Positions 2,621-21,125 of a stretch of 32,000 nucleotides of DNA are shown here, piece after piece. Source of the DNA: Edaphobacter aggregans (GTDB lineage Bacteria; Acidobacteriota; Terriglobia; Terriglobales; Acidobacteriaceae); NCBI RefSeq assembly GCF_003945235.1, contig NZ_RSDW01000001.1:5850001-5882000 (forward strand), in the 5' to 3' direction. The position numbers and the translations under genes are program-made. The notes beneath the pieces were generated by a model. That model was not told the DNA's origin and searched no databases. It saw only the letters and a list, made by a program, of their open reading frames with translations. Positions within the stretch are counted from its first letter, which is position 1; each line of letters opens with the position of its first letter.

Positions 2621-3057
2621 ATGCAGATACGTTCGGTTGGCATTGATCTGGGCAAGACTACCTTTCACCTCGTAGCGCTGGACGCAGCAGGCAAGGTGCT
2701 GTTGCAGAAGAAGTTCACTCAGAAGCAGCTCATCACCTTCACCGCGAACATGCAGACCTGTTGATCGGGATGGAGGCGTGTTCAGGCGCTCACTTCCTCG
2801 GACGTGTTCTGCGAGAACAAGGCCATGACGTGAAGTTGATCCCAGCCCAGTTCGTGAAGCCGTTTGTGAAGTCCAACAAGAACGACTTCCTGGATGCCGA
2901 GGCCATCGCCGAGGCGGTGGACCGGCAGAACATGCGCTTCGTTCCGATCAAGACCGACGACCAGCTCGACCTGCAGGCCATGCATCGTGTGCGCGATCGT
3001 CTCGTCGCGCGCCGAACGTCCGTGATCAACCAGCTGCGGGCCTTCCTGCTGGAGCGT
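2621..3057 (+). pseudogene. IS110-family transposase, N-terminal (DEDD) domain only, frameshifted and 3'-truncated
   Basis: AAGGAG RBS at 2605-2610 and ATG at 2621. MQIRSVGIDLGKTTFHLVALDAAGKVLLQKKF...NMQTC then stops at 2762. The reading continues in another frame as LIGMEACSGAHFLGRVLREQGHDVKLIPAQFVKPFVKSNKNDFLDAEAIAEAV...RLVARRTSVINQLRAFLLER. IS110-like similarity ends near 3057, and no C-terminal transposase domain is found anywhere in the window. Confidence 0.8.
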
Positions 3058-4029
3058 GTCTTCATGATCTGGAATCGTACTAGCACCACGTCAGAACCGT
3101 CGCCGAAATTGACAATGCGGTTGGGAACGCCCTGCGGTCGTCGACCGGTCGCCGCTGGGTTAGAGCGATTATCTGTCAGCGCCGCATGCATGCCGGGGGC
3201 GTTGGCATGTAGTCTCCAGCGCCCGGTTCAGCGCCAGTTCCACTGTGCCTTCGTGAGTTGCTCTTTGAAGACCGGAATGTCGCTGACTAAAGAGAAAACG
3301 TTATTGCGCATAACATGGCTAACAGTGACTAGAGCGAGGGCATGCCGTAGTTCGGGAAAAGGTCTTTACCATTCTGAAGAGCATCTTTATCGGGTGAGAA
3401 GGTTTCGAGGTAGTGGGGGTACCGCCCTCTCGAAAGCCTGCCTGTCTTCGAAGATTAACGGTTACCTGGGGAGGAACGCTGGCGTAAACGCCACATGCCA
3501 GGTTTCGATTGCCAACCTCGGATATCAGCTGGACCCTACTTGAACCAAGCTCATGGAAAGGTGTTCTTTCAGGAGTCAGAGAGGAGCACGTGGTGTTATA
3601 TAGCCTGAACTCAGCGGCGACGCTGATTACAGCATCGACTCACCTCTCGAAACCCAACCGGCACCGAGCTTGCATCAAGTCAGCTCATCACAAGTGCGAA
3701 ATAGAAACCCGGTGGAGAGCAGCATGCGTCGCAGCCAAATAAGCAAAAAATCCAAAATGCTCTCCTAAGAAGGAACGTAGTTGACTTCAGTTCGATTTTA
3801 GAAATGCGTTTCCCGTCACTACTCCTCATGGAGCTGGGCATTAGCCTGTCGAAAATCACTTGTTGGACACGCCGACTATTCATCCGAGTGCCTGCTCTCG
3901 GTTGGCTCTAAGGGAGAACACCACAACGCGTACCCCGCTATAGCTGACGCAGCGCCCGTAGTAACGATCCTGAAATCCGCGTGTAAGATGATCCTCGACT
4001 AAGTCCACGGCACCAAGGGAGCCGCCGGC

Positions 4030-5040
4030 ATGACCGTGCGCCTGAAAGACATTGCAAACGATCTGAACCTTTCGAAGATGACGATTTCCAAGGTTCTGCG
4101 TGGGCAAACCGATGTGAGCCCCGCCACGAAGGCGCGGGTGCTTCAGCGGGTGAAAGAGCTGAACTATAGGCCCAATATCTCGGCCCGCAGCCTTCGCACG
4201 GGCAACACGTTGAGCATTGGCTTGGTGATTCCTTCGCTTTCGAATCCTTTCTTCGCGGATATTACGCGAGGTCTCGTGCAAACAATGCGGACGGCAGGGT
4301 ACGGCCTGCTGATCTCGTCGTCGGAAGAGGATCCGGAGATCGAGCGGCATGAGATCGAGCTGCAGCTATCGAGGCAAGTGGATGCTCTCATCGTTGCATC
4401 AGTGCAGGAGTCATCTGAGTTTTTCGCCGCTCTTGGTCAACAGCGGGCGCCGCTAGTTTTGGTCGATCGCAAGCCGCCCTCGTTTGCCGCTCATTTTGTC
4501 GGATTGCGCGATCAGGATATTGGCTACGTGGCGGCGGCGCATCTTGCTGAAATGCGATGTCGCAAGCTTGCGTATCTGCGAGGACCACGAACGGCAGCTG
4601 CGGATCTTCGTTGGTCGGGATATCGAGCTGCTTTGAGCGAGTTCAACATACCTTTCAGGCCCGGCCTCGTGGTGGATGCCGGCGAGATGGCCCGCAACGA
4701 ATATCAACGAGGGTATGACACGATGTGTCGGTTGTTAGAGGGCAGGGTGAAGCCGGATGGCGTGATGTGCTACAGCGATCTCCTGGCCCTGGGAGTGATC
4801 GATGCGGCGCTTGAAAAGAATCTAAGAGTGCCGGAGGATGTCTCCGTTGTAGGTTGTGGCGATCTGCCATCCACTCGCGAGACGCGGGTTCCGCTATCCA
4901 GCGTGAATCTCTCTGGTGAAGAGGTCGGGAGGAGAACGGCGAAGCTGGTGTTGCGCACATTGTCTGGCAAGGAAGTCGCTCCAGATCGCAATATTCTGCT
5001 ATCGCCTCGAATGGTTGTTAGACGATCCAGCGATCGTTGA
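4030..5040 (+). CDS. LacI/GalR family transcriptional regulator
   Basis: 336 aa. N-terminal HTH: VRLKDIANDLNLSKMTISKVLRGQTDVSPATKARVLQRVKELNYRPNISARSLR. It is followed by a periplasmic-binding-protein-like sugar-binding core. Confidence 0.9.
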   Translation: MTVRLKDIANDLNLSKMTISKVLRGQTDVSPATKARVLQRVKELNYRPNISARSLRTGNTLSIGLVIPSLSNPFFADITRGLVQTMRTAGYGLLISSSEEDPEIERHEIELQLSRQVDALIVASVQESSEFFAALGQQRAPLVLVDRKPPSFAAHFVGLRDQDIGYVAAAHLAEMRCRKLAYLRGPRTAAADLRWSGYRAALSEFNIPFRPGLVVDAGEMARNEYQRGYDTMCRLLEGRVKPDGVMCYSDLLALGVIDAALEKNLRVPEDVSVVGCGDLPSTRETRVPLSSVNLSGEEVGRRTAKLVLRTLSGKEVAPDRNILLSPRMVVRRSSDR

Positions 5041-5174
5041 ATGATCGTGACTGCCTGTCTTGACACTGGTGCGGCTTCCCATTATCGTTAGCCCAAATTC
5101 CCGAGCACTTTCTGAGAGAATGAACGCCGTTGTCGGCACCTGTTGGCAGAGCGAACTCTCAAGCTAAGGTTGCA

Positions 5175-6155
5175 ATGCTTTCAAAGCGAATCGCAGCGAA
5201 ACCCTTTGACCTCGTCGTCTTTGGTGAGTTCTTTTCTGACCTCATCTTCTATCGACTACCCGACCGGCCACGCCTGGGCGAAGAGTTGAAGACTGATCAT
5301 TTCCTGATCGCGCCCGGTGGTGGACTGGCGACAACGGCACTGGCCGCGAGCAAACTGGGTACGTCAACAGGTATCGTGACCCGCGTAGGAGTGGACGCTT
5401 CTGTGCTGCCGACCTGGGCAGCCATGATGAATCAGGGGTTGGATGTAACCGCATGCGAGGTGCGCAAGGATGTTCCGACGGCTTTGACCGTCTGCATTGC
5501 ATATAAGGCTGACCGGATGATGGTGACGCATGAACCGATCAATCGGAATCTGGAAGACCTGCTGGATAAGGTTCAGGTGCAACGTAAGTTGAGACGCGCG
5601 CGCCATGTGCACCTCGCATGTGCGCTGCACCGGCCACAGAAATGGATCCCATTGCTGAAGTCTCTGCGTGAGGACGGGATTACCATCTCCGCTGACTTTG
5701 GATGGAACCCGGATATCTCCATCAATCAGCTGATCTCCATCATCCAGCACTGTCAGTTTATCTTTCCGAATCAGCATGAGGCCTGCGCGATCACTCGAAC
5801 CACGACCGCACGTAGAGCACTTGAAAAGCTGCATGAGTGGGTTCGCGTTCCCGTAGTGAAACTAGGCTCGAAGGGAGCCATGCTGATGTCCGACGGCAAC
5901 GTATACAGGCAGCCTGCCTTACGGGGTAGTATCGTTGACGCCACAGGCGCTGGCGATGCATTCAATGGCGGTTTTCTTCACGAGTTTTTGCGTGGCTCTC
6001 AGTGGGACGACTGTCTGCGCGCCGGCAATATATGCGGCAGCCTGGCAGCGATGGCGCCGGGCGGCTCTCTTGGACTCCCCACGCCTCCTGAGTTTGCCAA
6101 GCACATGCGCACACTCAGGTCTGCCGGTCTTACTAAAAAGACTCCCGCGAAATAA
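5175..6155 (+). CDS. PfkB-family carbohydrate kinase (kinase 1)
   Basis: Ribokinase-like fold motifs are present: N-terminal FDLVVFGEFFSD, GGGLATTA, and the C-terminal ATP/anion-hole motif DATGAGDAFNGGFL. The ORF track starts at a TTG at 5130. I prefer the ATG at 5175, but the start is uncertain. Confidence 0.85.
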   Translation: MLSKRIAAKPFDLVVFGEFFSDLIFYRLPDRPRLGEELKTDHFLIAPGGGLATTALAASKLGTSTGIVTRVGVDASVLPTWAAMMNQGLDVTACEVRKDVPTALTVCIAYKADRMMVTHEPINRNLEDLLDKVQVQRKLRRARHVHLACALHRPQKWIPLLKSLREDGITISADFGWNPDISINQLISIIQHCQFIFPNQHEACAITRTTTARRALEKLHEWVRVPVVKLGSKGAMLMSDGNVYRQPALRGSIVDATGAGDAFNGGFLHEFLRGSQWDDCLRAGNICGSLAAMAPGGSLGLPTPPEFAKHMRTLRSAGLTKKTPAK

Positions 6156-6285
6156 GTCTCTCAGGAGGCGCGGAATCAACGGACGAAGTGCCAATTCCGT
6201 TGGGTCCGCATCGATCGAGACGACAGACCTATAAGTGTCCTGGTATCTGCCGATGGACTGCATTTCTTAAATTGTCCGAATTTTC

Positions 6286-6314
6286 TTGACATGCCTATTG
6301 CTGGCTGATATTTC
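6286..6314 (+). promoter_or_regulatory. candidate sigma70-type promoter of the receptor operon
   Basis: Perfect TTGACA at 6286-6291, a 17-nt spacer, then TATTTC at 6309-6314. It lies about 165 bp upstream of the receptor ATG. Pattern match only. Confidence 0.35.
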
Positions 6315-6329
6315 CATAAGGCACGACTT

Positions 6330-6345
6330 ACGTTATCGGTAACGT
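6330..6345. promoter_or_regulatory. candidate LacI-family operator (palindrome ACGTTA-TCGG-TAACGT)
   Basis: Perfect 6-bp inverted arms flank a central CG. The site fits the LacI/GalR operator skeleton G..A.CG.T..C. It lies just downstream of the candidate -10 element. Confidence 0.4.
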
Positions 6346-6477
6346 GACCGATCAAGGAGTGTGCTGAGGGCGAAGCCGCAAGGCCATCCGGCACAGGTTG
6401 GTAAAAGGAGTCTTGCTCGACAAAGACGTTCCGTTCTATCCGTTTCAGTGGAAGGCCCTTTATAAGGAGTTATTCCG

Positions 6478-9400
6478 ATGAATCTAGATAAGTTTGAGAA
6501 TGAGTTTTCGATGCAGAGGAAACAAGGGGTTGTTCGCGGCTTTTTAAGCCTGCTACTCCTTGTCGTTTTTGGCACTGCAACCGCGTTGGCGCAAATCGAT
6601 ACAGGAACGATCACCGGCGTTATACGCGATGCTCAGGGGGCCGTGGTGCAGGGAGCAACGGTGACAATACGCAATGTCGCAACTGGCGTTGTCACGACGA
6701 CGAAGACAAACAACGATGGAAACTATGAGGCGCTCGGTCTGATTCCGGGGAACTACTCCGTTGAAGCTACGTCAACTGGATTTGGTGTGACAAAGAATCC
6801 TTTGGTTGAGGTACACGTAAAGACGCGCGCGCAGGTGGATTTCTCCTTGACGGTGGGTGCGAACCAGGAGCGGATTGAAGTAAACGAAGTCGGTGTGACG
6901 TTGCAGACACAGTCGGCCGATGTGGGTATTGTTGTTGGGTCACAGCAGATCACCGATCTTCCTCTCAATGCCAGGCGGTATGCAGACCTTGCGCTGCTGG
7001 CTCCGGGCATCTTCAAAAACCCCTCGGTTGCTAACCCCGCGCCTGATCGGTTCAGTTCGAACGGCAACACTGAGACGCAGAACTACTTTGCACTGGATGG
7101 CGTAGATAACAACTCTGGTTCGACGAATCTGCAAGAGGGTTCCGTGCAGAACGTTCAGCCTCCGCCGGATGCGATTCAGGAGTTTCGCTTGCAGACCCGC
7201 ACGTACTCGACGGAGTTCGGTACCTCGGCAGGGGCCGTCGTCAACGCCTCGATCAAGAGCGGAACAAACCAATTTCATGGCAACGCTTTTTTGTTTGCCC
7301 GAAACAGCGTTTTCGATTCGAATACATATTTCAATCGACAAAAGGGTATCCCCAAGGGAACCTTTAGTCAGAATCAATTTGGTGGCACTATCGGTGGTCC
7401 CATCTACCGCGACCATACCTTTTTCTTTGGTGACTACCAGGGTCTTCGAAGCCAGAAGGATGTGACGGAGTCCTCTGTGGTGCCTTCTGCCAATATGAAG
7501 ACCGGTAATTTCAGCGAGTTGAGCAGCACTACTTATCCACTGAACAGCATAGCCACGGGACAGGCAGGCTGCATCACGCCCGCCACCAGAATTATTTCGC
7601 CAAGCTGTCTGGACCCTGTTGGGGTGAAACTCGCGGCACTCTTTCCCGACCCAAACGATCCGCGGGTGCCCGTGTGGACCGGCGCTACGAATTACAATTA
7701 CGTATTCCTTTCGCCGACACAGAACAACTCCACCGATCTTCGAATCGATCACAAGCTTCGCGCGAACGATACGATCTTCGGGCGCTACAGCTTCTTGCAG
7801 CAGCATAGGCAAGATCCGTTATGGACCTCAAACCCCATTGCCGGCAACGGAGGCTTTGCGACGGATTACGCTATCCGTAACCAAGGCGTTGCCCTTGGAT
7901 GGACACACGTGTTCTCTTCCAGCGCGGTTAATCAGGCTCGCTATGGCTTTTCCCGCGACAACGCGCACAGCAACCCGATCGGGCTTCAGCTCGGCACCTC
8001 AAATGCACCGGACTACGGCTTAACCGGAATTCCGGTGTCTCCTTATACCGCTGGGATCCCTCCTATTTATATTTCGGGTCTGGTTACGCTTGGCGTGGAT
8101 CGTTTTCGACCCCAATTTCAAGCGTCGCAGACCTTTCAATTCATCGATATCTTTACCAAGCTGTTGGGTGCGCATAGCTTGATGTTTGGCTATCAGTATC
8201 ACCGCAACACAGACACTTTCCTTGACTTGCAGGCGCCGCAGGGATTTATGCAATCCACTGGAATTTACACGAACAAATCAGGGTTCGGAGTGGCTGACTT
8301 CATGCTCGGTGATATTGCCTCAACCATCTACAACACGCCTCTGGATGTACATCAATTTCTGCCCGGCCATTCGTTCTTTGGTCAGGATACCTGGCGCGTC
8401 GCCAAGAATCTCACCGTGAATTATGGACTGAGGTATGAGCTCTATGCACCGATGCTGAATCGCACTAACTCGGTCTCCAACTTCTCCCCTGCGAACGGAG
8501 GCTCTCTTGTTCCGGCATCCGTCACTGCGGGAGGTTGGAGTGATCGTGCCCTTATCAATGCTGACAAAAACAACGTAGCTCCGCGCTTTGGCTTTAGCTA
8601 TCAGTCTTCGGAGAGAGTTGTCTTTCGCGGCGGATATGGCATCTTCTATCAGTTCATCAATCGCATCGGTTCCGAGTCCCAGCTCGCGTTAAATCAACCT
8701 TTTCTGAAGGCAGTGCAGACTTCGCAGACTAATGGAAGCGTGACACCCGTGTTCCAGCTAATGAATGGGTTTCCTGGAGCCTTGTATTCAGGTTCGGTTG
8801 TTCCATTGACTCTGCAGAAAAATAACTGGCAGGATCCAAATCAGCGCACCAGTTACATACAGCAAGCGAGCTTTGGTCCACAGGTGTTGTTGACTTCCAA
8901 TACTGTGATGGAGCTGACGTGGGTAGGGAACTGGGGACGCAAAATGAACCGGTTAAGCAACGCAAACCAGGGACAGGTGATTGGTTTTGCTAATCCAGCC
9001 CAGGCTATCGTGCAGTTTCCCTATGCCAACCTGAATACAACCACCACGGCAATCGGTGGTACTGGAACACACTCATTTTTGGAGTTCTCATCGAATGAAG
9101 GCAATACAAGCTATAACTCGCTCCAGGCAAGCTTGCGGCGCCCCCTGGTCAAGGGACTTGGTTATCAGATCAGCTATACCTGGGCACATGCCATTACAGA
9201 CTTCGTAGATAATCTGACTGGCGGATCAACCCCACAGAATGCATTTGACTATTCGCATGAACGAAGCAACTCTCCTTTCGACCAGAGGCACCGTTTCGTC
9301 GCGAGTGGTTTGTGGAGACTGCCGTTTGGCCAGGATGGATGGATTATGAACAACGATTCGAAGGCCGCGCGATTGCTGGGCAACTGGCAGCTCAACGGTA

Positions 9401-9849
9401 TTGTGACGTTACAAACTGGTCTGCCATTGAACATTACAGCGCCGGATAACAGCCAGACAGGCGGAAATCATGCGGCATACGCAAATTGTGTCAGCGATCC
9501 ATTCGCGAATACAACGACGAGCCGTATCGCTATTTCGACGCAAAATGTTCCCGGTGTCTTCATCAACCCAAATGGATTTTCGATCCCTGGACCTGGCACC
9601 TTCGGTACGTGCAGACCGCGCCTGTTCCACGGCCCTGGCAGTCAAAATGTGGATATGAGTCTCTTTAAGCAATTCCCACTCGGAGAGGTGCGAAAGATCG
9701 AGCTGCGTTTTGAGTTTTTCAATCTGTTTAATCACGCCAACTTCGCCAACCCGGCGACCAGTATGAGTAATACGGCGACCTTTGGCAAAGTGAGTTCCAC
9801 TGTGAACGATCCACGCGAAATTCAAATGGCCGGTAAGTTCTACTTCTAA
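6478..9849 (+). CDS. TonB-dependent receptor with N-terminal carboxypeptidase-regulatory-like domain
   Basis: 1123 aa. AAGGAG RBS 8 nt upstream of the start. Signal peptide ...GTATALAQ. CarboxypepD_reg-like segment: GTITGVIRDAQGAVVQGATVTIRNVATGVVTTTKTNNDGNYEALGLIPGNYSVEA. Plug-like segment: DLPLNARRYADLALLAPGI. A long beta-barrel region ends in the OMP signature ...REIQMAGKFYF. Confidence 0.9.
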   Translation: MNLDKFENEFSMQRKQGVVRGFLSLLLLVVFGTATALAQIDTGTITGVIRDAQGAVVQGATVTIRNVATGVVTTTKTNNDGNYEALGLIPGNYSVEATSTGFGVTKNPLVEVHVKTRAQVDFSLTVGANQERIEVNEVGVTLQTQSADVGIVVGSQQITDLPLNARRYADLALLAPGIFKNPSVANPAPDRFSSNGNTETQNYFALDGVDNNSGSTNLQEGSVQNVQPPPDAIQEFRLQTRTYSTEFGTSAGAVVNASIKSGTNQFHGNAFLFARNSVFDSNTYFNRQKGIPKGTFSQNQFGGTIGGPIYRDHTFFFGDYQGLRSQKDVTESSVVPSANMKTGNFSELSSTTYPLNSIATGQAGCITPATRIISPSCLDPVGVKLAALFPDPNDPRVPVWTGATNYNYVFLSPTQNNSTDLRIDHKLRANDTIFGRYSFLQQHRQDPLWTSNPIAGNGGFATDYAIRNQGVALGWTHVFSSSAVNQARYGFSRDNAHSNPIGLQLGTSNAPDYGLTGIPVSPYTAGIPPIYISGLVTLGVDRFRPQFQASQTFQFIDIFTKLLGAHSLMFGYQYHRNTDTFLDLQAPQGFMQSTGIYTNKSGFGVADFMLGDIASTIYNTPLDVHQFLPGHSFFGQDTWRVAKNLTVNYGLRYELYAPMLNRTNSVSNFSPANGGSLVPASVTAGGWSDRALINADKNNVAPRFGFSYQSSERVVFRGGYGIFYQFINRIGSESQLALNQPFLKAVQTSQTNGSVTPVFQLMNGFPGALYSGSVVPLTLQKNNWQDPNQRTSYIQQASFGPQVLLTSNTVMELTWVGNWGRKMNRLSNANQGQVIGFANPAQAIVQFPYANLNTTTTAIGGTGTHSFLEFSSNEGNTSYNSLQASLRRPLVKGLGYQISYTWAHAITDFVDNLTGGSTPQNAFDYSHERSNSPFDQRHRFVASGLWRLPFGQDGWIMNNDSKAARLLGNWQLNGIVTLQTGLPLNITAPDNSQTGGNHAAYANCVSDPFANTTTSRIAISTQNVPGVFINPNGFSIPGPGTFGTCRPRLFHGPGSQNVDMSLFKQFPLGEVRKIELRFEFFNLFNHANFANPATSMSNTATFGKVSSTVNDPREIQMAGKFYF

Positions 9850-9894
9850 AATTCCTTGGATCAAACCGCCGAATCGGCAGGGAGCGGATGCAAT

Positions 9895-12708
9895 ATGCGT
9901 TTCAATCTGAAGAGTTCCATCCGAGTGGCATTTGCTCTTGCGCTTCTTCCTCCGCTCCTTGGCAATGGGTTTGATGCTTCCAGTAAGCCGGTTGAAGATG
10001 CGCGGCCTATTCCGGTCGACCGTGGCGCGGCGGCGACCTGGCAAGCACTGATGAAGCTGCGTACCCGCGCAAGTATGCTCATGATTGTGGCTCATCCGGA
10101 CGACGAGGATGGAGCAACGCTTGCCTATGAGAGCCGGGGTCTTGGCGTTCGAACCGATCTTATGACGCTGGATCGAGGCGAAGGTGGCGCGAACGTAATG
10201 TCATCCGATCTGTGGGATGCGCTTGGGTTGGTTCGTACGGAGGAGCTGCTGCAGGCAGGTCGTTACTATGGGCTCGATGGCCAGTATTTTTCGTCCCTCG
10301 CAGACTATGGCTTTTCAAAGTCCTTGAAAGAGGCGCTTGATCAGTGGGGCCACGATCGCGTTTTGGCTGAGGCGGTTCGGGTTGTTCGTACGGTGCGTCC
10401 TCTCGTCGTTACTTCGGTCTTTGTGGGTGGTCCCACGGATGGGCATGGACAACATGCAACTGCCGGTCTGATGGCGCAGGAGGTCTTCAAAGCAGCGGGC
10501 GATCCGAATATGTTTCCCGAGCAGATCCTAGCAGGGCTGATGCCATGGACACCGGTGAAGGTATATGCGCGAGCCCCGTTTTTTCGTACATCTGAGAAAG
10601 GTTCCTACGATTATGCGACCCATCACTGGGGACCGGTAGGTGTGCAGAATCACGTCACGGAGCAATGGGAGCCGGGCCAGGTGTCCGCAACTCTAGCTGT
10701 TCCCGTAGGGACCTACGACAGCCTTGCAGGCCTGACCTATTCGCAGATCTCGCGCGAAGGTCTCGGTTTTCAGAAATCTCAGAATGGCGGCTCGGATGTG
10801 CCGATGCCTACTGATCAGGTGGCCCGATATCATCGGTTCGGTTCGCATATTCCCTCCAAAGACAAGGAAGAGAGTTTTTTCGATGGGATCGATGTATCCC
10901 TCGTCGGAATTGCAGACCTTGCAGGCCCCACACCGCCGGCATTTCTAAAGAGTGGGCTGGAGCAGATCAATGGCTTTGTCGAGAGCGCAATCTCGGGATT
11001 TTCTGCCCAAAATCCATCCGCGGTTGCAGCAACGCTTGCGAAAGGACTTAAGGCGACCAATGCGCTTGTGGATGGAGTGGAAAAGAGTGCGCTGCCCGCT
11101 GAAAACAAATACAACGTACTCCACGAACTTAGAGTGAAGCAAAAGCAGTTCAATACAGCTTTGGTTGCTTCACTCGGCATCTCGGCTGAAGCCGAGGTGG
11201 TTCCGGCGGCAAGGGGCGGCGATATCCCGGCAGAGTTTCGGGGTGCACAGCAGAGCTTTCAGATGGCGACGCCAGGTCAAAGCTTTCATGTTGGTGTACA
11301 TCTCTTCGACGGCGGCAAGCTGCCGGTAGAGATAGAATCGGTCGCGCTGAATGCACCATCCGGTAAGAATTGGAGCGCTACTCTTGATGCTGCAACGCCA
11401 AAGCAAATTGAACCTGGCAAAGCTGCTGACGTTCGTTTTGCGGTCAAGGTTCCAGAGGATGAGCCGTATAGCCGACCCTACTTTAGCCGTCCGGATATGG
11501 AACAGCCTTATTACGATATCGCTGACAAAGCGGCGATAGATAAGCCTCAGGGACCATATCCGCTCGCTGCTACTGTACGCTACCAGTTCGATGGATTGAC
11601 GCTGGAGACATCCAACGTCGTACAAGTGATCAATAAAGTGACCGGCCCCGGTACACTTCGATCTCCAATGCCTGTGGGACCTGCAATCTCAGTAGCTCTG
11701 AATCCGAGTGCGGGAATCGTACCGCTTGGCGAGAAATCGTTTCCAGTGAGCGTTCGACTACACAACAATACTGAGGGAACGGCCAAAGCAAACGTCCGCC
11801 TTAATCTTCCGGACGGATGGATCTCGGAACCAGCGTCTGTCCCGGTGGGGTTTACTCACAGAGGGGAAGAACAGGCGGTGCCTTTTACAGTCCACCCCAA
11901 TTCGATCACGCAAAAACCGTATGAAATTACCGCCGTTGCTGAGTACGATGGCAAGCAATACAAAGAAGGATATGTTTCGGTTGGCTACACCGGTCTACGT
12001 CCTTACTTCCTCTATAGCCCTGCGACCTATAAGACAACGGGAGCCGATGTAAAGATGGCGTCCTCACAGAAGATCGCTTATATCGAAGGTAGTGGTGACG
12101 ATATACCTGCCGCACTTGAAGCGCTGGGTGTTCACGTATCGTTTCTCTCTGCACAGGACCTGGCGAGCGGGGATCTCAGCAAATATGATTCGATCGTGGT
12201 AGGTGTTCGAGCCTATGCGGTGCGACCGGACCTGATCGCAAACAATGCACGTCTGCTGAAATATGTAGAAGACGGCGGCGTGGTAATAGTGCAATACAAC
12301 ACGCCGGAGTTTGACCATAACTACGGGCCATATCCCTACGTCATGTCGAATGATCCGGAAGAGGTCACGGACGAGAAGTCCGCTGTCACGATTCTCAATC
12401 CGAAGCACCCACTGTTTACGTGGCCGAATGCCATCACTTCAAAAGATTTTGATGGATGGATTGAAGAGCGAGGATCGAAGTTCCTCGTCTCCTGGGACAA
12501 ACAATACGAATCGTTGCTCGAGACCCATGATGCCGAGCAGGATCCGCAGAAGGGTGGGCTTCTGTACGCGCGTTACGGAAGGGGAGCCTATATCTACAAC
12601 GCATACGCTTTTTATCGGCAACTTCCGCTCGGTGTGCCAGGTGCCTACCGCATCTTCGCAAACATGCTAAGCCTACCGAAAAATCCGCAGTTCCGCAGTG
12701 GCGAATAG
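9895..12708 (+). CDS. secreted multidomain PIG-L (LmbE) family deacetylase
   Basis: The in-frame ATG at 9895 is preceded by GGAGCGG, whereas the track's TTG at 9856 has no RBS. Signal peptide: MRFNLKSSIRVAFALALLPPLLG. PIG-L motif: MLMIVAHPDDEDGATLAY...GHGQH. There are two beta-sandwich-like repeats in the middle. The C-terminal alpha/beta module (KIAYIEGSGDDIPAALEALGVHVSFL...YDSIVVGVRAY...GGVVIVQYNT) resembles a class-I glutamine-amidotransferase-like fold; that assignment is inference. Confidence 0.8.
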   Translation: MRFNLKSSIRVAFALALLPPLLGNGFDASSKPVEDARPIPVDRGAAATWQALMKLRTRASMLMIVAHPDDEDGATLAYESRGLGVRTDLMTLDRGEGGANVMSSDLWDALGLVRTEELLQAGRYYGLDGQYFSSLADYGFSKSLKEALDQWGHDRVLAEAVRVVRTVRPLVVTSVFVGGPTDGHGQHATAGLMAQEVFKAAGDPNMFPEQILAGLMPWTPVKVYARAPFFRTSEKGSYDYATHHWGPVGVQNHVTEQWEPGQVSATLAVPVGTYDSLAGLTYSQISREGLGFQKSQNGGSDVPMPTDQVARYHRFGSHIPSKDKEESFFDGIDVSLVGIADLAGPTPPAFLKSGLEQINGFVESAISGFSAQNPSAVAATLAKGLKATNALVDGVEKSALPAENKYNVLHELRVKQKQFNTALVASLGISAEAEVVPAARGGDIPAEFRGAQQSFQMATPGQSFHVGVHLFDGGKLPVEIESVALNAPSGKNWSATLDAATPKQIEPGKAADVRFAVKVPEDEPYSRPYFSRPDMEQPYYDIADKAAIDKPQGPYPLAATVRYQFDGLTLETSNVVQVINKVTGPGTLRSPMPVGPAISVALNPSAGIVPLGEKSFPVSVRLHNNTEGTAKANVRLNLPDGWISEPASVPVGFTHRGEEQAVPFTVHPNSITQKPYEITAVAEYDGKQYKEGYVSVGYTGLRPYFLYSPATYKTTGADVKMASSQKIAYIEGSGDDIPAALEALGVHVSFLSAQDLASGDLSKYDSIVVGVRAYAVRPDLIANNARLLKYVEDGGVVIVQYNTPEFDHNYGPYPYVMSNDPEEVTDEKSAVTILNPKHPLFTWPNAITSKDFDGWIEERGSKFLVSWDKQYESLLETHDAEQDPQKGGLLYARYGRGAYIYNAYAFYRQLPLGVPGAYRIFANMLSLPKNPQFRSGE

Positions 12709-12783
12709 TCCGCCTCTGCGCTCGATTCGACCAGCGCATCAGCGCCAGCCAACCGAACGCGCAAACGAAATTACACGGAAATC

Positions 12784-14160
12784 GTGGACTTCATGGAAAC
12801 ACAGACGGCTCCTGCTGGACAACAACTCGATCGTGGCATGGGCCTCGCAGGGGCGATGTCGGCCAACATTCTCAGCATGGTTGGAGTTGGTCCATTTCTC
12901 ACTATTCCGCTCGCACTGGCGGCAATGGGCGGCCCCCAAGCCATGCTTGGCTGGATAGCAGGAGCTTTGCTGTGCCTGTGCGACGGAATGGTATGGGCGG
13001 AATTGGGCTCTGCATTGCCCCGCTCCGGTGGGCCATACCACTACCTGCTACAGGCTTTTGGGCCTACCAGCTGGGGACGCCTGGTTAGCTTTTTATTTCT
13101 CTGGCAAACATTGCTCATTGGGCCTATATCCATTGCATCCGGGGCCGTTGGCTTTGGCGAATACTCAAACTTTCTTGCACCGCACCTAAGACATAGGCAA
13201 CTGGTCGCTATCGCGATGGTGCTGTGTCTATTGAATACTGGGCTGCTGTGTCGCAACATCCGGTCGATCAGCAAGATTTCTATTGTCGTTACCACCGCAG
13301 TGCTCGGCACTTGTTGTTGGATCGTAATTAGTGGGATGATCCACTTTCATGCTGTTACCGCCTTCAATTTCCCTGCTCATGCCTTCCAGCCATCACGTGC
13401 GTTCTGGTTCGGGCTAGGTTCTGCAGCGTTGATCGCGACCTATGACTACGGTGGTTACAACAATGTTTGCCTCATTGGGGAAGAAGTTAGTAATCCCAGA
13501 AGGACAATACCGCGTGCGGTGATCTACTCCATCATTCTGGTCGCGATTCTTTATCTGGCGATGAACCTGTCCATCCTGGGCACGGTGCCATGGCAGCAAG
13601 GGCAATACTCCAAGGCCATCGTCGCTGACTATATGCAGATTCTCTACGGACGGTGGGGCGGAGTATTTGTCTCGCTGTTAATTCTGATCGCAAGCTGGGG
13701 TTCAGTTTTTGCTATTCTCCTCGGCTTCTCGCGAGTTCCCTATACGGCTGCAGCGGATGGTCACTTCTTCAAACCCTTTGCGCGGCTTCATCCCACCGGA
13801 AAATTTCCATCGACATCGCTTCTGGTAATGGGAGCGCTGTCCGCCGTGGCATGTCTCTTTTCGCTTGCTGATCTCATCTCTGTCCTCATCGTAGTACAGA
13901 CGATGACGCAGTTCATGGCGCAGTGCGTGGCAGTGATTCTTCTGCGACATAAGGCAATCGCTGCACCAGCCAGCTTTCGCATGCCTCTTTACCCTCTGCC
14001 GGCTATCGTTGCGCTCGGAGGGTGGCTGTATATCGTTCTCAGCAGCAAGGTCTCCCACATTCTGATAGGCATTGCAATGACAATTACAGGAACCACCGTG
14101 TATCTGTTACAGGCCAAACGTAAACAGGAGTGGCCGTTCCACGCATATGACCAAATATGA
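12784..14160 (+). CDS. APC-superfamily (amino acid/polyamine/organocation) permease
   Basis: 458 aa with about 12 hydrophobic segments. APC-type N-terminus: ANILSMVGVGPFLTIPLALAAMGGPQAMLGWIAGALLCLCDGMVWAELGSALPRSGGPYHYL. The start is either GTG 12784 or ATG 12793. Confidence 0.85.
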   Translation: MDFMETQTAPAGQQLDRGMGLAGAMSANILSMVGVGPFLTIPLALAAMGGPQAMLGWIAGALLCLCDGMVWAELGSALPRSGGPYHYLLQAFGPTSWGRLVSFLFLWQTLLIGPISIASGAVGFGEYSNFLAPHLRHRQLVAIAMVLCLLNTGLLCRNIRSISKISIVVTTAVLGTCCWIVISGMIHFHAVTAFNFPAHAFQPSRAFWFGLGSAALIATYDYGGYNNVCLIGEEVSNPRRTIPRAVIYSIILVAILYLAMNLSILGTVPWQQGQYSKAIVADYMQILYGRWGGVFVSLLILIASWGSVFAILLGFSRVPYTAAADGHFFKPFARLHPTGKFPSTSLLVMGALSAVACLFSLADLISVLIVVQTMTQFMAQCVAVILLRHKAIAAPASFRMPLYPLPAIVALGGWLYIVLSSKVSHILIGIAMTITGTTVYLLQAKRKQEWPFHAYDQI

Positions 14161-15073
14161 CGTCGCTGTCGTAGGCGAAATCTATATCGACCATATCTTC
14201 ACCGGTTTCTCTGCATGGCCACAACCGGGAGAGGAATCGTTTGCCCGCCAATACCATCGGGAAATTGGCGGCGGGGCTGCAAACACTGCGTGTGCGTTGG
14301 GCAGGCTTGAACGAACGGTCGATCTGATTGGCATTATTGGCGCTTCAGACACTGACTGGTTTGAGGCTCGATTGATGGAGTTTGGCGTTTCGAGCAACGG
14401 GATACATCGAGCAGCAGGCAATACCGGCGTTACTGCGAGCGTCTCGATGGTGGATGATCGATCGTTTTTCACTTACACGGGTGCAAACGAGCAGTTGATG
14501 GATATGCTGCGCTCCAACGTCATGCTTACGTCATTGACGCGAGCGCGCCATGTGCACTTTGCGCTACCGCTGGACCGTGAGCTCGCCAGAGATCTACTGC
14601 CTGCGTTACGAGAGGCTGGCTGCACAACATCACTTGACGTTGGATTTCAGCGGACGTGGTTAACCTCTCAGGCCAATCTCGATACCTGTCGTACTATCGA
14701 CTATTTTTTACCTAACGAGAGAGAAGCACTGTTGCTTTGCGGTGGGGGCGCAGCCGAATATTTGGCATTCGCGCAAAAGAATGGGTTACAGGCAGCCGTG
14801 ATCAAGCTTGGTCCGTATGGTGCAGCCATGCAGGTAAATCACATGACGTATAAAGTATCGTCGCCCGCAGTAGATGTGGTCGACACGACCGGCGCAGGTG
14901 ATGCGTTCAACGCTGGCTTTATTGATGCATTACTGGACGAGGCCGCTCCCGAGGATTGCCTACGTCGCGCTTGTATCTGTGGTGGGCTTTCAACACGTGT
15001 AGAAGGATCGTTGCGCGCATTGCCACGCCGCGAGGAGGTTATCGATATTTATGAGCAAACTTACGCGCCGTAA
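14147..15073 (+). CDS. PfkB-family carbohydrate kinase (kinase 2)
   Basis: 308 aa. Motifs: YDVAVVGEIYIDHIF, GGGAANTA, DTTGAGDAFNAGFIDALL. The start overlaps the permease stop by 14 nt. Confidence 0.85.
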   Translation: MTKYDVAVVGEIYIDHIFTGFSAWPQPGEESFARQYHREIGGGAANTACALGRLERTVDLIGIIGASDTDWFEARLMEFGVSSNGIHRAAGNTGVTASVSMVDDRSFFTYTGANEQLMDMLRSNVMLTSLTRARHVHFALPLDRELARDLLPALREAGCTTSLDVGFQRTWLTSQANLDTCRTIDYFLPNEREALLLCGGGAAEYLAFAQKNGLQAAVIKLGPYGAAMQVNHMTYKVSSPAVDVVDTTGAGDAFNAGFIDALLDEAAPEDCLRRACICGGLSTRVEGSLRALPRREEVIDIYEQTYAP

Positions 15074-16418
15074 AATTGCATTTATCGGTGGGGGCGGCGT
15101 TCGCACACCGCTTGTAGTCTTCGGTGTGAATGAATCGGTGCAGAGTTTGGGCGCGGAGGAACTTGTTCTCTTCGACCCCGACCGAGACCGCGTTCGCATT
15201 ATGGCCGAACTGGGGAGATCAATTGTCGCGCAGGAGGGCGGCAGTCTTCGGGTACGCGTAGCTGCGTCGATTGAAGATGCTGTCGACGGCGCCGCCTTTG
15301 TGATGAACAGCATTCGTGTCGGTGGCATTAGATCGCGTGCTCATGACGAGCGGATCGCAATCGAGCACGGATATCCGGGCCAGGAGACCACGGGACCAGG
15401 CGGAGTCGCAATGGCTTTACGCACTGTATCTGTTGCTGTGGAACAAGCGAAATTAGTCGAGCGACTAAGTCCACAGGCATGGCTGATCAATTTTACGAAT
15501 CCTGCTGGACTGATTACGCAAGCGATTCGACATCATACGGGAGCGAGAGTGGTCGGTATATGTGATACGCCCAGTGAGATATTGCACCGTATTCAGACCG
15601 CATTGGGTGCTAGTCGCGACGAAGTGCGTTCCGAGTATGTAGGGCTTAATCATCTTGGATGGATTCGTCGCATTCATCTTCGCGGCGAGGACGTCACGGA
15701 ACGACTGCTTGCAGATGACGCTTTCCTGAGTCAGATCTACTCTGTTCCACTTTTCGAACATGAGCTTATTCGCGCTTTGAAGCTTATCCCGACGGAGTAC
15801 CTTTTCTTCTATTACTCCCGCCGCAGGGCCCTGGACAATCAACGCAGACAGGGCAGTACGCGCGGGGCAGAGGTGGAACAGCTCAACAACCGGTTGATCT
15901 CCGGTCTGGCGCAACTGTTGCAGAAGGGTGATTCCAAGGGTGCCATCGCAACCTACGTGAACTATCTCAATACTCGGTCCGGATCGTATATGAAGCTCGA
16001 GGGCGATGGCGGTTCGGCATTGGCTTGTGCAGAAGACTGGGCCGAAGATCCTTTTCGAGTCGCGAGTGGATACCATCGAATAGCGCTTGACGTTATGAAT
16101 GCCCTATGTGGCAAACAGTCAAAGCGCATTGTCGTCAACACTCAGAATTTGGGCAGTATCCCAGAGATGGAAGCGACCGATATCGTTGAGGTTTCATGCC
16201 GAATCGTTGCGGACACCATCACGCCTGAGCCTTGTGGCGCTTTGCCCGAAGCGGTTCGCGGGTTAGTCTTAGCGGTTAAGGCCTACGAGCGCGCCGCGAT
16301 TGAGGCGGCGCTTTCAGGCTCTGAGCTCGCAGCTCGTAAAGCAATGCTGCTCTATCCTGCCATTGGAGAGTGGGAACCCTCAAAGGAGCTTCTGGAACAA
16401 TTGATTGTGCATTGCTAA
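15051..16418 (+). CDS. glycoside hydrolase family 4 enzyme (NAD+/Mn2+-dependent, 6-phospho-glycosidase-like)
   Basis: 455 aa. Rossmann N-terminus [13 protein letters not shown], then [25 protein letters not shown] and GLNHLGW. This is the GH4 motif series and is closest in style to the CelF/ChbF/BglT phospho-beta-glucosidase group (C-N/D-x-P). The start overlaps kinase 2 by 23 nt. Confidence 0.85.
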
Positions 16419-19545: not shown

Positions 19546-20241
19546 ATGAAGCTGCACTCAAACTTGTGCGCTTTGGGAGCGGTTCTGGCACTTACGACCG
19601 CTTTCACGTTCGCTAACACCATAACAATCGCAAGTCAGGCCGGGTCTGCTACCGGTGATACGATTTATGCCGCTACTACGGGAAGCGGAATCTTCGCTTA
19701 CCTTGGAAATATCGGCACTAGCTTCGCATTAAGCAATGTAACTCCGACCTGGGCGACTGCAATTCCGGGCTCGACTTGGGTCGGTATCTCTCCTACCGCG
19801 GGCCCCTCCGGTACGATCAATCCACAAATTGGTCTCTATACTTTCACCGTGGATCTGGGTAGCGGGCTGGCTGGTTACAGTGGATCGATCGGTGTTCTAG
19901 CCGACGATACAGCGAGCGTTTCGCTCAACGGCACGCTACTGATGGGGTTCGGCGGCGGTCTCGACAATCACTGCGAATCGACAGGCATCAACTGCCTGAC
20001 GGTGACTGATGTCGTGCTGCCCGCTTCGGCGTTCTTAGCTGGCGATAACACGCTAACTTTCCAAGTGCTCCAGGCTGGTACGGGCGCCCCAGGTGGAACG
20101 GGCGATCCTTCGGGTTTGGACTTCGCGGGTTCGATATCGAGTCCTGTGGGTACCCCTATCGTTCCGGAACCAAGCACGTTATTGATGCTCGGAACCGGGT
20201 TGATCGGTGGGGGCGTGCTGTTTCGTAGGATCCGGGCCTAG
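19546..20241 (+). CDS. PEP-CTERM sorting-domain protein (secreted, unknown function)
   Basis: AGGAGA RBS 6 nt before the ATG at 19546. Signal peptide: MKLHSNLCALGAVLALTTAFTFA. C-terminus VPEPSTLLMLGTGLIGGGVLFRRIRA gives the PEP motif, a TM helix and a basic tail. The track ORF start at 19321 is rejected. Confidence 0.85.
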   Translation: MKLHSNLCALGAVLALTTAFTFANTITIASQAGSATGDTIYAATTGSGIFAYLGNIGTSFALSNVTPTWATAIPGSTWVGISPTAGPSGTINPQIGLYTFTVDLGSGLAGYSGSIGVLADDTASVSLNGTLLMGFGGGLDNHCESTGINCLTVTDVVLPASAFLAGDNTLTFQVLQAGTGAPGGTGDPSGLDFAGSISSPVGTPIVPEPSTLLMLGTGLIGGGVLFRRIRA

Positions 20242-20304
20242 TTTCAAGACTGGTTTCATGGCGTAGAGAAGACTCCATTGAGGTTGTCCAATTATGTTCA
20301 GGTC

Positions 20305-20339
20305 ATGAGCGCGAGAGAATTCCTTCGCGCTCATTTTTT
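20305..20339 (+). terminator. rho-independent terminator
   Basis: Perfect 10-bp stem ATGAGCGCGA / TCGCGCTCAT with a 10-nt loop, followed by TTTTTT. It lies 64 bp after the PEP-CTERM gene stop and abuts the convergent peroxiredoxin-like gene. Confidence 0.75.
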
Positions 20340-20343
20340 GGTA

Positions 20344-21027
20344 TCACCGGATGAGTGAGGCGAGGACTTCGGTGGGTTCGGGGCGGACTCGGAAGTCGGC
20401 GTGGGCTTGGGAGAAGAGGATGGTGTTGTCTTGTGCGATGACGAAGACGCCGGGGATGGGGAGGCGCCAGCTGGCTTCGGTGGCGGTTTGATAGTTTAGG
20501 CCGGCGTTGTTGAAGGGGATGTTGACGAGGATGGATTGGTAATAGCGGCGGTACTCGGGGGGGACGGTGTAGGCCAGGCCGAATTGTTCGGCTACGGCAG
20601 CTCCGGGGTCGGCGAGCAGCGGGTAGGTGAGGGCGTGCTGCTGGAGGGCAAAGTTGTTCTGACGAGTGGTCTGGGGGGAGATAGCTACGAAGAGTGCGCC
20701 GCGCTCGCGGAGTTGGGGGTGGAGTTCGCGCCAGGTTTCTAGCTCGGTGACGCAGTAGGGGCACCAGCGGCCGCGGAAGAAGTTAATGACGAGCGGGCCA
20801 AGGGCGAGGAGGTCGGCTGAGTTGACGGGTTTTCCGGTGCGGGCGTCTTCGAGGGCGAAGGCCGGGGCTTGAGTGCCGACGGGGAGGATCCGGTTTTCAA
20901 TGCCGCTGGCGAAGAGATCGCAGACCATTTGTTCGGAGACGGCGAGACGCTCGGGCTGGACCAGGGCGCGGGTGTTCTGGGTGATCTGGTCTAGCTGGTC
21001 TTGCAGGGATAGGGTGCGAGAGGTCAC
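20344..21027 (-). CDS. peroxiredoxin-like / AhpC-TSA family thioredoxin-fold protein
   Basis: 227 aa. Motif: PAFALEDARTGKPVNSADLLALGPLVINFFRGRWCPYCVTELETW (W-C-P-x-C redox motif). Confidence 0.8.
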   Translation of the reverse strand: MTSRTLSLQDQLDQITQNTRALVQPERLAVSEQMVCDLFASGIENRILPVGTQAPAFALEDARTGKPVNSADLLALGPLVINFFRGRWCPYCVTELETWRELHPQLRERGALFVAISPQTTRQNNFALQQHALTYPLLADPGAAVAEQFGLAYTVPPEYRRYYQSILVNIPFNNAGLNYQTATEASWRLPIPGVFVIAQDNTILFSQAHADFRVRPEPTEVLASLIR

Positions 21028-21052
21028 TTGTTAATTATAGGTGTGGAGAGAT

Positions 21053-21125
21053 TTTGCGCTTTGCGCGACCCACTCATGTCGCGATAAAGCTGCGCCATGA
21101 ATGGGCACCCCAAATTTGTGGCTGG
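21053..21125 (+). repeat. modular intergenic repeat, copy R1 (modules A+B, degenerate C)
   Basis: Sequence: TGCGCTTTGCGCGACCCACTCATGTCGCGATAAAGCTGCGCCATGAATGGGCACCCCAAATTTGTGGCTGG. It contains the GCGC-TTT-GCGC hairpin, plus a CCCACTCATG...CATGAATGGG stem ending in GGGCACCC. Confidence 0.75.

Follow-up and report, generated by a model that had tools for sequence, protein, structure and literature searches.

A LacI-associated locus of Edaphobacter aggregans combining PIG-L, APC permease, PfkB kinase and GH4 genes: a candidate operon for an N-acyl-glucosaminyl-inositol conjugate

The stretch of Edaphobacter aggregans DNA analysed here (the window: 32,000 nucleotides, positions 5,850,001 to 5,882,000 of contig NZ_RSDW01000001.1, assembly GCF_003945235.1) carries a seven-gene locus for a LacI-family repressor, two PfkB sugar kinases (PfkB-1 and PfkB-2), a predicted TonB-dependent receptor, a predicted PIG-L deacylase, an APC-superfamily permease and a predicted glycosidase of family GH4 (Table 1). 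We regard it as an even proposition that this locus would be a LacI-controlled catabolic operon for an N-acyl-glucosaminyl conjugate whose other half is, or contains, myo-inositol. A preliminary description of the same DNA had proposed a route independent of the phosphotransferase system (PTS), in which an N-acetylated glycoside is taken up, deacetylated in the periplasm, imported, phosphorylated by a PfkB kinase and cleaved by GH4; support for that route comes from comparative genomics, and rests on the GH4 enzyme and its kinase partner, on a recurring gene order and on inositol genes beside related loci.

The GH4 protein exceeds the Pfam cut-offs for both of its domains (PF02056, 136.4 bits against 23.2; PF11975, 144.5 bits against 24.1) and is 100% identical to an Edaphobacter aggregans protein. 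Among solved structures it is nearest to the 6-phospho-beta-glucosidases 1s6y, 5c3m and 1up7 (E 1e-63 to 1e-49), followed by the 6-phospho-alpha-glucosidases (GlvA 1u8x, 6vc6 and 6dux; E 1e-41 to 1e-37), while the GH4 enzymes that act on non-phosphorylated substrates, AglA and LplD, match at E 1e-18 or weaker. The residues for binding NAD and Mn are kept, as the preliminary description had supposed for a working enzyme. The glycine-rich loop IGGGGVRTP (residues 12-20; 15084-15110) aligns with IGGGSSYTP of 1s6y as a Gly-for-Ser variant whose Arg is invariant across the subfamily, and Cys171, His201 and Tyr250, which align with Cys162, His192 and Tyr241 of BglT, do not vary among 16 orthologues or in any locus examined; the motifs CDTP (15561-15572), GLNHLG (15642-15659) and PTEYLFFYY (15789-15815) are present. 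According to work on BglT and GlvA, Cys162 and His192 of BglT are metal ligands and Tyr241 is the catalytic base.

The protein departs from the canonical enzymes in its signature, which reads IGGGGxRxP ... GICD[TS]P across its relatives and GGGSxYTP ... GLCNVP in the canonical group; the Cys-Asn-(Val/Ile)-Pro motif (CNxP) of BglT, ChbF and LicH is not in the window GH4, which has GICDTP in its place. A Cys-Asp pair of the GlvA/MalH/AglB type is present, but as CDTP rather than CDMP, and the match to GlvA (E 5e-41) is weaker than that to the beta enzymes (1e-63). No PTS gene was found in the locus, where the partners of GH4 are a PfkB kinase and an APC permease. Over all fetched loci, a PfkB gene lies within 3 kb of GH4 in 58 of the 68 with the Cys-Asp signature and in 1 of the 17 with the canonical CNxP signature (Fisher p ~1e-9, not corrected for phylogeny). 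This association is the strongest support for a kinase, and not a PTS, as the source of the phospho-glycoside. Judged by sequence, the proteins with IGGGGxRxP and GICD[TS]P are a distinct GH4 subfamily tied to a PfkB kinase, and on the same basis the database name '6-phospho-beta-glucosidase' is unsafe for the window protein and should not be trusted.

Several GH4 enzymes are established to act on unphosphorylated substrates, and the best NCBIfam matches of the window protein are to the alpha-galactosidase subfamily and AglA, in its N-terminal half only and below the cut-offs. GH4 could accordingly act first, on an unphosphorylated glycoside as AglA and MelA do, leaving the PfkB kinases to phosphorylate the released monosaccharide or a downstream intermediate. 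We consider this order unlikely, since phospho-specific GH4 structures match at E 1e-63 to 1e-37 and the others no better than 1e-18, since kinase and GH4 appear translationally coupled through a 23-bp overlap, and since the kinase tracks the Cys-Asp subfamily. Phosphorylation before cleavage, the order given in the preliminary description, is upheld by the far closer phospho-specific structures (1e-63 to 1e-41 against 1e-18) and by the PfkB association.

For the comparison of gene order, one genome per species was scanned with a GH4 alignment, and the seven window proteins were searched with tblastn on the resulting loci (cited below by L numbers); a second survey, centred on PIG-L, scanned metagenome contigs and covered 80 loci. 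Acidobacteriaceae, Bryocella among them, have the full order PfkB1-receptor-PIG-L-APC-PfkB2-GH4, and the window order is found in the metagenome loci L081, L082, L086, L087, L089, L107 and L115, alongside rearranged versions. The trio APC-PfkB2-GH4 without PIG-L, at 53-66% identity, is present in Nitrospirillum, Azospirillum B4, Luteibacter, Pinirhizobacter and a metagenome-assembled genome (MAG) of Vulcanimicrobiota. Clustering of open reading frames (ORFs) over 30 orthologous loci recovered PfkB-2 in 29, the APC permease in 24 and PIG-L in 15; the PfkB-2 orthologues (34-87% identical) adjoin GH4 in those 29 loci, and the permease stands directly upstream of PfkB-2 and GH4 in 24. Conservation across Terriglobia, which had been put forward as a check, was therefore found there and beyond. 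The arrangement is not due to chance: many species-level genomes and metagenome contigs repeat it. On this sequence evidence, APC-PfkB2-GH4 is a conserved core in Acidobacteriota, Pseudomonadota and Vulcanimicrobiota, to which PIG-L, the receptor and PfkB-1 form an accessory front end. Both PfkB kinases of the preliminary description are present, but only PfkB-2 belongs to this core, PfkB-1 being accessory: its orthologues (62-99% identical) occur only in loci of the LacI/receptor/PIG-L type.

PIG-L accompanies the module in 14 of 29 orthologous loci, and a second link between PIG-L and GH4 was met further afield. More distant Cys-Asp GH4 proteins (35-37% identical) lie in DeoR-GH4-PfkB-ABC transporter clusters of Solirubrobacterales, Conexibacter and other Actinomycetota. 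Eight of these distant clusters carry a different large PIG-L protein, which in L041 has 1316 residues with CBM9, Big_3_5 and collagen repeats, and signal peptides are seen at both of the actinomycetotal PIG-L N-termini that were read (L041 and L036). As both the PIG-L and the transporter type differ beside PfkB-GH4, the combination of extracytoplasmic PIG-L, transporter, PfkB and GH4 appears to have been assembled independently in Actinomycetota.

That the core trio exists without PIG-L in Pseudomonadota, and PIG-L orthologues without GH4 in view in many metagenome loci, would fit two unrelated neighbouring units, with the receptor and PIG-L serving some other periplasmic deacetylation and APC-PfkB2-GH4 a separate pathway. 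We judge this very unlikely: in the window all genes lie on one strand with only short gaps between them (45 and 75-84 bp), receptor-PIG-L-APC-PfkB2-GH4 is found repeatedly in this order at 45-92% identity, Actinomycetota independently recruited a PIG-L of different architecture beside GH4 and PfkB, and the PIG-L loci without visible GH4 still have a paralogous APC permease and iol genes.

Some individual loci of these surveys merit separate mention. In L019 (a MAG labelled Alphaproteobacteria) and L020 (a Pseudomonadota MAG), PIG-L-APC-PfkB2-GH4 is 67-82% identical to the window, against 53-66% in proteobacterial isolates, which points to mis-binning or recent transfer; the GH4 match in L019 falls into two pieces, with no match at 10001-10244, possibly through a frameshift or an assembly problem. 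At the APC position of an Acidobacteriaceae locus (L003:7703-9091), AA_permease_2 matches over the first half only (~215 of 462 residues), possibly a decayed or divergent permease. In Streptomyces sp. NPDC002838 (L035, 5771-15765), DeoR, PfkB and an ABC transporter accompany a Cys-Asp GH4, and genes for a GH38 alpha-mannosidase and a GH29 alpha-L-fucosidase come next; the substrate of kinase and GH4 in Streptomyces may be a glycan decorated with mannose and fucose.

The identity of the aglycone is suggested by the genes that flank the module in relatives. In four Acidobacteriaceae loci the myo-inositol oxygenase MIOX (E 5e-104) is beside GH4, directly downstream on the same strand in L005, L006 and L008 and convergent in L012, and in L016 it lies ~4 kb from GH4; downstream of MIOX no uronate-pathway gene was found, an S15 peptidase gene following instead. 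In Nitrospirillum amazonense, iolG (NCBIfam 419 against a curated cut-off of 355) overlaps the start of the APC gene, and RpiR, iolC-DUF2090, iolD, iolB and iolE adjoin the module, an arrangement repeated in Azospirillum B4. Loci of the Solirubrobacterales type have iolB, C, D and E, an iolG candidate of the Gfo/Idh/MocA family, an aldehyde dehydrogenase, and a protein with two SIS domains that scores best as GlmS-isomerase or NagB-II and is a candidate glucosamine-6-phosphate (GlcN-6-P) deaminase. In the PIG-L-centred set, 12 of the 80 loci have iolD, E, B or G and one more has MIOX; one of the iolD proteins exceeds its curated cut-off (823 against 715). None of 14 loci of the CNxP (Cys-Asn) type has inositol genes.

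Since inositol degradation accompanies the module by two different routes, MIOX and Iol, and in no fewer than three phyla, we argue that inositol is a product. Taken together with the chemistry of PIG-L enzymes, the amine-type APC permease and the GlcN-6-P-deaminase-like neighbour, these inositol genes make an N-acyl-glucosaminyl-inositol the most economical substrate. The substrate list of the preliminary description is narrowed in this way: the flanking genes favour its class of N-acetylglucosamine (GlcNAc)-polyol conjugates, as GlcNAc- or N-acyl-glucosamine (GlcN)-inositol, and leave chito-oligomers and glycated amines less likely. A further group of PIG-L orthologues, 55-58% identical (L092-L103 and L128; e.g. 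L092:12804-15694), is followed by a TPR protein, a creatininase-family amidohydrolase with a weak match to IolN (3-dehydro-scyllo-inosose hydrolase) and a transaldolase/FSA-like protein, with iolD, iolB, iolE and iolG on the other side of PIG-L; it may represent a variant inositol-linked pathway.

The window PIG-L protein comprises a signal peptide, the PIG-L domain, a helical linker, two beta-sandwich (NPCBM_assoc-like) domains and a highly conserved alpha/beta C-terminal domain. The PIG-L domain, ~135 of 937 residues, scores 49.5 against a PF02585 cut-off of 28.2, and its His/Asp metal ligands and general-base Asp are kept: AHPDDE (residues 66-71; 10090-10107) and the HxxH motif GHGQH (183-187; 10441-10455) align with AHPDDE and GHPDH of MshB, and both motifs are invariant in 28 homologues. 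A Sec-type signal peptide, MRFNLKSSIRVAFALALLPPLLG, was read by eye, with no predictor; signal peptides are visible on the receptor and PIG-L, and none on the kinases or GH4. Of the 'secreted PIG-L deacetylase' first described, the domain and the signal peptide are thus present, but the protein is a large multidomain one and not a simple deacetylase. Its best NCBIfam matches are Mca (36.7 bits, cut-off 277) and then MshB (30.7 bits, cut-off 224), and a profile search gives MshB (1q74/4ewl, E 7.5e-4) as the nearest solved protein; a single-sequence search against the PDB gave no match. PIG-L, MshB and Mca act on N-acyl-GlcN-alpha-inositol conjugates (PMC10950700). An AlphaFold2 model of the 938-aa protein, built from 28 aligned sequences, was of low quality (mean pLDDT 55.6; PIG-L domain below 50), and Foldseek with this model against the PDB returned generic Ig-like beta-sandwich matches only. 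In a relaxed Pfam scan the C-terminal domain gave insignificant matches to GLMA_2nd (E 0.014) and Glyco_hydro_42M.

That faint GLMA_2nd match is among the points that would suit a chitin or chitosan route. Chitobiose would enter through the receptor, PIG-L would act as the archaeal diacetylchitobiose deacetylase does, and the APC permease would import GlcN-GlcNAc or (GlcN)2; PfkB-2 would then phosphorylate, GH4 would be a ChbF-like 6-phospho-beta-glucosaminidase, and PfkB-1 would phosphorylate the released GlcN. Such a route has roles for both kinases, and it agrees with the 6-phospho-beta-glucosidases as the best solved relatives of GH4 and with the established pairing of a PIG-L deacetylase and a GH35 glucosaminidase in Thermococcus; in the Luteibacter loci GH35 replaces PIG-L and scores best in NCBIfam as exo-beta-D-glucosaminidase, but with 103 bits where the cut-off is 1500. 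The same Luteibacter GH35, on the other hand, has an ordinary beta-galactosidase domain set, the orthologous loci hold no chitinase, GH20, NagA, NagB or NagC-type gene (ROK regulators stand only beside distant PIG-L paralogues), and the CNxP signature that marks ChbF- and BglT-type enzymes is missing from GH4. The repeated MIOX/iol linkage, including an iolG in the same operon, is also left unexplained, and we give the chitin route little weight. A system of the E. coli chb type was rejected for want of a PTS and a YdjC protein and for the wrong GH4 motif. The paralogues in question (~50% identical; L119, L123, L124, L130, L135 and L146) adjoin a NagC-like, ROK-family regulator with a helix-turn-helix (HTH) and a different CarboxypepD_reg-type receptor, and may be a GlcNAc-responsive variant for a different substrate.

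The receptor matches OMP_b-brl_4 (744.7 bits), CarboxypepD_reg (64.3) and TonB_dep_Rec_b-barrel (34.3), with no match to the Plug model at E <= 0.01, and 8 loci from genomes and 25 from metagenomes have one of its orthologues immediately before PIG-L. In NCBIfam the permease resembles generic amino-acid, polyamine and FrlA-like transporters but reaches none of their cut-offs. Both kinases exceed the PF00294 cut-off (132 bits for PfkB-1, 141 for PfkB-2) and keep the expected motifs, GAGDAF (5946-5963) and NxxE, as PNQHE (5766-5780), in PfkB-1 and GAGDAF (14891-14908) and PNERE (14711-14725) in PfkB-2. Neither reaches the NCBIfam equivalog cut-offs for ribokinase, IolC, KdgK or FrlD; no close characterised relative was found for either, nor a close solved relative for PfkB-1. 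An assignment of PfkB-1 as IolC or KdgK was dropped, as neither the NCBIfam scores nor the analysis of neighbouring genes support it.

The FrlA-like matches of the permease (100 bits) and FrlD-like matches of the kinases (56-65 bits), all sub-threshold, raise a glycosyl-amino-acid or Amadori route as in frl, in which the permease would import GlcNAc-Asn, Gal-Hyp or fructosamine, PfkB would phosphorylate it and GH4 would replace the deglycase. GH4 elimination is established to tolerate O-, S- and N-linked leaving groups, and the double-SIS neighbour of Solirubrobacterales could in principle be a FrlB-like deglycase. We place very little credence in this route: the cut-offs, 800 for FrlA and 247 for FrlD, lie far above the scores of 99.9 and 56-65, neither FrlB nor FrlC occurs in the window or the orthologous loci, the window holds no SIS-domain deglycase, the double-SIS protein is best read as GlmS-isomerase or NagB-II, and the inositol linkage is left unexplained. 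An frl-type system proper was rejected on the unmet equivalog cut-offs and the missing deglycase.

Regulation by the LacI protein is suggested by a palindrome, ACGTTATCGGTAACGT, upstream of the receptor gene. The repressor combines an HTH with a periplasmic-binding-protein-like effector domain, and homologues 41-96% identical to it adjoin the module in L007, L016, L021, L081-L083, L086 and L089. The palindrome was found by reading the intergenic sequence, a generic inverted-repeat search having missed it; it is unique in the window, where 0.11 chance matches are expected at up to 3 mismatches. Related GTTAyCGrTAAC palindromes, with a central CG, precede the receptor in L002, L008, L011, L012 and L017; in L007, L016 and L021 they precede APC. 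From these sequences we regard the site at 6330-6345 as a candidate LacI operator.

In the proposed pathway, the TonB-dependent receptor would import the conjugate, which could be mycothiol or its disulfide, GlcNAc-inositol, or de-lipidated head groups of glycosylphosphatidylinositol (GPI) or of glycosyl inositol phosphorylceramides (GIPCs). The periplasmic PIG-L would remove the N-acyl group as MshB and Mca do, exposing a free amine, and the APC permease would carry this amine, of the GlcN-inositol type, into the cytoplasm. There PfkB-2 would phosphorylate the sugar with ATP, probably at O-6, and GH4 would cleave the phospho-glycoside by NAD+/Mn2+ redox-elimination to GlcN-6-P and myo-inositol, a chemistry that would need no oxocarbenium ion next to the protonated amine. 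Inositol would then enter the MIOX or Iol route and GlcN-6-P a deaminase, through genes presumed to lie elsewhere in the E. aggregans genome and found beside the module in relatives.

Several natural sources are candidates. Mycothiol or its disulfide is abundant in Actinomycetes and would require an Mca-like amidase; GlcNAc-inositol and GPI cores are others, as are plant or fungal GIPC head groups. The GIPC of tobacco is reportedly Gal-beta-GlcNAc-alpha-GlcA-alpha-Ins. A GIPC source would also explain the periplasmic GH35 of Luteibacter and Pinirhizobacter and the GH2 of Nitrospirillum, and its zwitterion would suit an amino-acid-type permease, but it would need an extra alpha-glucuronidase. 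Mycothiol, GPI anchors and fungal GIPCs all have the glucosamine-alpha-inositol bond at their core. More tentatively, and with somewhat less than even confidence, we suggest that the Cys-Asp (GICD[TS]P) GH4 and its dedicated PfkB would be the enzyme pair that breaks this bond, by 6-phosphorylation followed by redox-elimination; soil Acidobacteria, rhizosphere Pseudomonadota and some Actinomycetota would then feed on these abundant GlcN-inositol conjugates, with periplasmic or secreted PIG-L amidases in front.

A number of observations weigh against the glucosaminyl-inositol reading. No inositol or GlcN-6-P gene lies within the 32-kb window, and most related loci are without them (they are present in 7 of 29 orthologous and 13 of 80 PIG-L loci). 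PIG-L resembles Mca and MshB only weakly (31-37 bits against 224-277; E ~1e-3 in the PDB), which does not establish specificity, the carriage of a sugar conjugate by an APC permease is an assumption taken from FrlA, and PfkB-1 is left unexplained in the proposed pathway. Overall, GH4 is nearer to the 6-phospho-beta-glucosidases than to the alpha enzyme GlvA, while natural GlcN-inositol bonds are alpha; only the Cys-Asp motif looks alpha-like. The anomeric selectivity of GH4 enzymes is loose for activated substrates. The periplasmic GH35 that takes the place of PIG-L in Luteibacter and Pinirhizobacter, the GH2 near the Nitrospirillum module and the GH38 and GH29 genes of the Streptomyces locus hint at larger or different glycans.

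Coordinates of the locus are collected in Table 1. The seven plus-strand ORFs stand where the preliminary description had placed them, each above the Pfam curated cut-off for the family it had named, and its spacing, with gaps of 45 and 75 bp and two start/stop overlaps, was reproduced. None of the seven proteins reaches an NCBIfam equivalog cut-off. The gap between the receptor and PIG-L genes is 45 bp, and that between the PIG-L and APC genes 75 bp if APC starts at the GTG and 84 bp if it starts at ATG 12793; the overlaps are 14 bp (APC/PfkB-2) and 23 bp (PfkB-2/GH4). An independent gene call on an ENA contig starts the APC gene at ATG 12793 and gives PIG-L 937 residues.

Table 1. Genes and candidate regulatory site of the locus, in window coordinates.
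Feature	Position	Strand	Details
LacI-family repressor	4030-5040	+	336 aa; Pfam LacI HTH and Peripla_BP_3/1
PfkB-1 sugar kinase	5175-6155 (ORF opens at TTG 5130; likely start ATG 5175)	+	Pfam PfkB 132 bits
Candidate LacI operator, palindrome ACGTTATCGGTAACGT	6330-6345		133 bp upstream of receptor start
TonB-dependent receptor (predicted), acidobacterial type	6478-9849	+	1123 aa; OMP_b-brl_4 744.7 bits
PIG-L/LmbE deacylase (predicted), multidomain	9895-12708 (ORF from 9856; real ATG 9895)	+	937 aa; PF02585 and PF10633
APC-superfamily permease	12784-14160 (alternative ATG 12793)	+	455-458 aa; AA_permease_2 137.5 bits
PfkB-2 sugar kinase	14147-15073	+	308 aa; Pfam PfkB 140.9 bits
GH4 NAD+/Mn2+-type glycosidase (predicted), Cys-Asp (GICDTP) subfamily	15051-16418	+	455 aa; Glyco_hydro_4 and Glyco_hydro_4C

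The unit is bordered upstream by an IS110-family transposase fragment (2761-3543, plus strand) just before the LacI gene, and downstream by a gene for a trypsin-like peptidase on the opposite strand; the minus strand encodes an outer-membrane efflux protein (OEP) at 468-1913 and, near the window end, an IS200-like Y1 transposase at 30373-30957. The putative catabolic unit may lie in a stretch that is mobile or has been rearranged. This fits the horizontal transfer suggested by the 61-65% identity between its GH4 and proteobacterial orthologues. Scans for promoters and terminators found no more sites in the window than in shuffled sequence. Long antisense ORFs inside the GH4, receptor and PfkB-2 genes (15465-16076, 6940-7812 and L001:8989-9603, all minus) are 'conserved' in up to 25 loci, which we take for an artefact of sense-gene conservation in GC-rich DNA and not for evidence of genes.

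Further downstream, at 20000-25000, the plus strand has a GC skew of +0.16 to +0.34 and a GC content of up to 0.64, with no tandem repeats. This region holds minus-strand genes for AhpC/TSA (20344-21027) and a dienelactone hydrolase (21127-22032), a plus-strand GNAT gene (22092-22679) and several ORFs without a Pfam match. Two proteins with PEP-CTERM sorting signals and a cytochrome P460 (19321-20241, 29675-30280 and 26179-26787, all plus) are encoded downstream and are unrelated to the locus.

To our knowledge, no glycosidase has been described for the GlcN-inositol linkage. Mycobacteria are reported to catabolise mycothiol-derived GlcN-inositol by an enzyme that has not been identified. If the proposed pathway is true, the enzymes described here would be the first to break the GlcN-inositol bond, and the question of the missing enzyme would become directly testable. 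A widespread GH4 subfamily that is misnamed in databases has its own signature and a kinase partner in place of the PTS, and the idea of phospho-glycosidases without a PTS extends in this way to phyla that largely have no sugar PTS systems. The route would suggest a way for the abundant Acidobacteria of soils to regain carbon and nitrogen from the thiols of Actinobacteria or the head groups of eukaryotic membrane anchors and sphingolipids, and it would offer a plausible role for large periplasmic PIG-L proteins, which have thousands of homologues, none of them characterised.

The preliminary description knew of no characterised pathway with this architecture, and literature searches likewise found none; those on GH4 with PfkB, mycothiol with GH4, GlcN-inositol catabolism and PIG-L with iol genes gave no account of such a pathway. 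Not described in the literature searched are the architecture itself, the GH4 subfamily with an obligate PfkB partner, the giant periplasmic PIG-L and the connection to inositol. All the components, on the other hand, belong to known families, and the logic of deacetylation, phosphorylation and cleavage is partly precedented in chb, the BglK systems and frl.

The chb system of E. coli (ChbG, ChbF) shares the deacetylation of a GlcNAc-glycoside before GH4 cuts the 6-phospho-glycoside, which suggests that GH4 needs a free 2-amine. In chb, however, PTS import supplies the phosphate, a cytoplasmic enzyme of the YdjC family deacetylates, and ChbF carries CNxP, whereas the window module has no PTS, an APC permease and PfkB in its stead, a predicted periplasmic PIG-L and a GH4 with CDTP. 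The logic of the module is that of the PTS-independent systems of Klebsiella and Listeria, in which a free glycoside is imported, phosphorylated with ATP by the ROK kinase BglK and then cleaved by a phospho-beta-glucosidase; those systems differ in having a ROK and not a PfkB kinase, another transporter, cellobiose or gentiobiose as substrates, a glycosidase of another clade, and neither deacylase nor outer-membrane receptor. The GH4 enzymes GlvA, MalH and AglB share Cys-Asp at the metal site (Cys171-Asp172 in GlvA, as CDMP, and Cys171-Asp172 in the window protein, as CDTP) and the conserved His and Tyr, but they are PTS-fed, the window GH4 is less similar to GlvA than to the beta enzymes, and its loop reads GGGGVRTP against GGGSxYTP.

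MshB, the GlcNAc-inositol deacetylase, and Mca, the mycothiol S-conjugate amidase, belong to the same PIG-L fold family and have AHPDDE and HxxH as the window protein does. Their product GlcN-inositol is the intermediate proposed for the module (PMC10950700). They are cytoplasmic single-domain proteins of ~290 residues from Actinomycetes with biosynthetic or detoxifying functions, in contrast to the 937-residue, predicted periplasmic, multidomain acidobacterial protein of a putative catabolic operon. The chitin pathway of Thermococcus kodakarensis (Dac, the GH35 enzyme GlmA, an ADP-dependent GlcN kinase and GlmD) resembles the module in that a PIG-L enzyme exposes GlcN before cleavage and a kinase and a SIS-type deaminase follow; it is entirely cytoplasmic, cleaves by classical GH35 chemistry, and has no GH4 and no link to inositol. 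Among the loci studied, GH35 occurs only in Luteibacter and Pinirhizobacter, with a beta-galactosidase architecture. In the frl system of E. coli (FrlA, FrlD, FrlB), finally, an APC permease likewise imports an amine-bearing sugar conjugate, which a PfkB kinase phosphorylates before the bond is cleaved; there an Amadori C-N linkage is split by a SIS-domain deglycase, and in the module GH4 would take the cleaving role.

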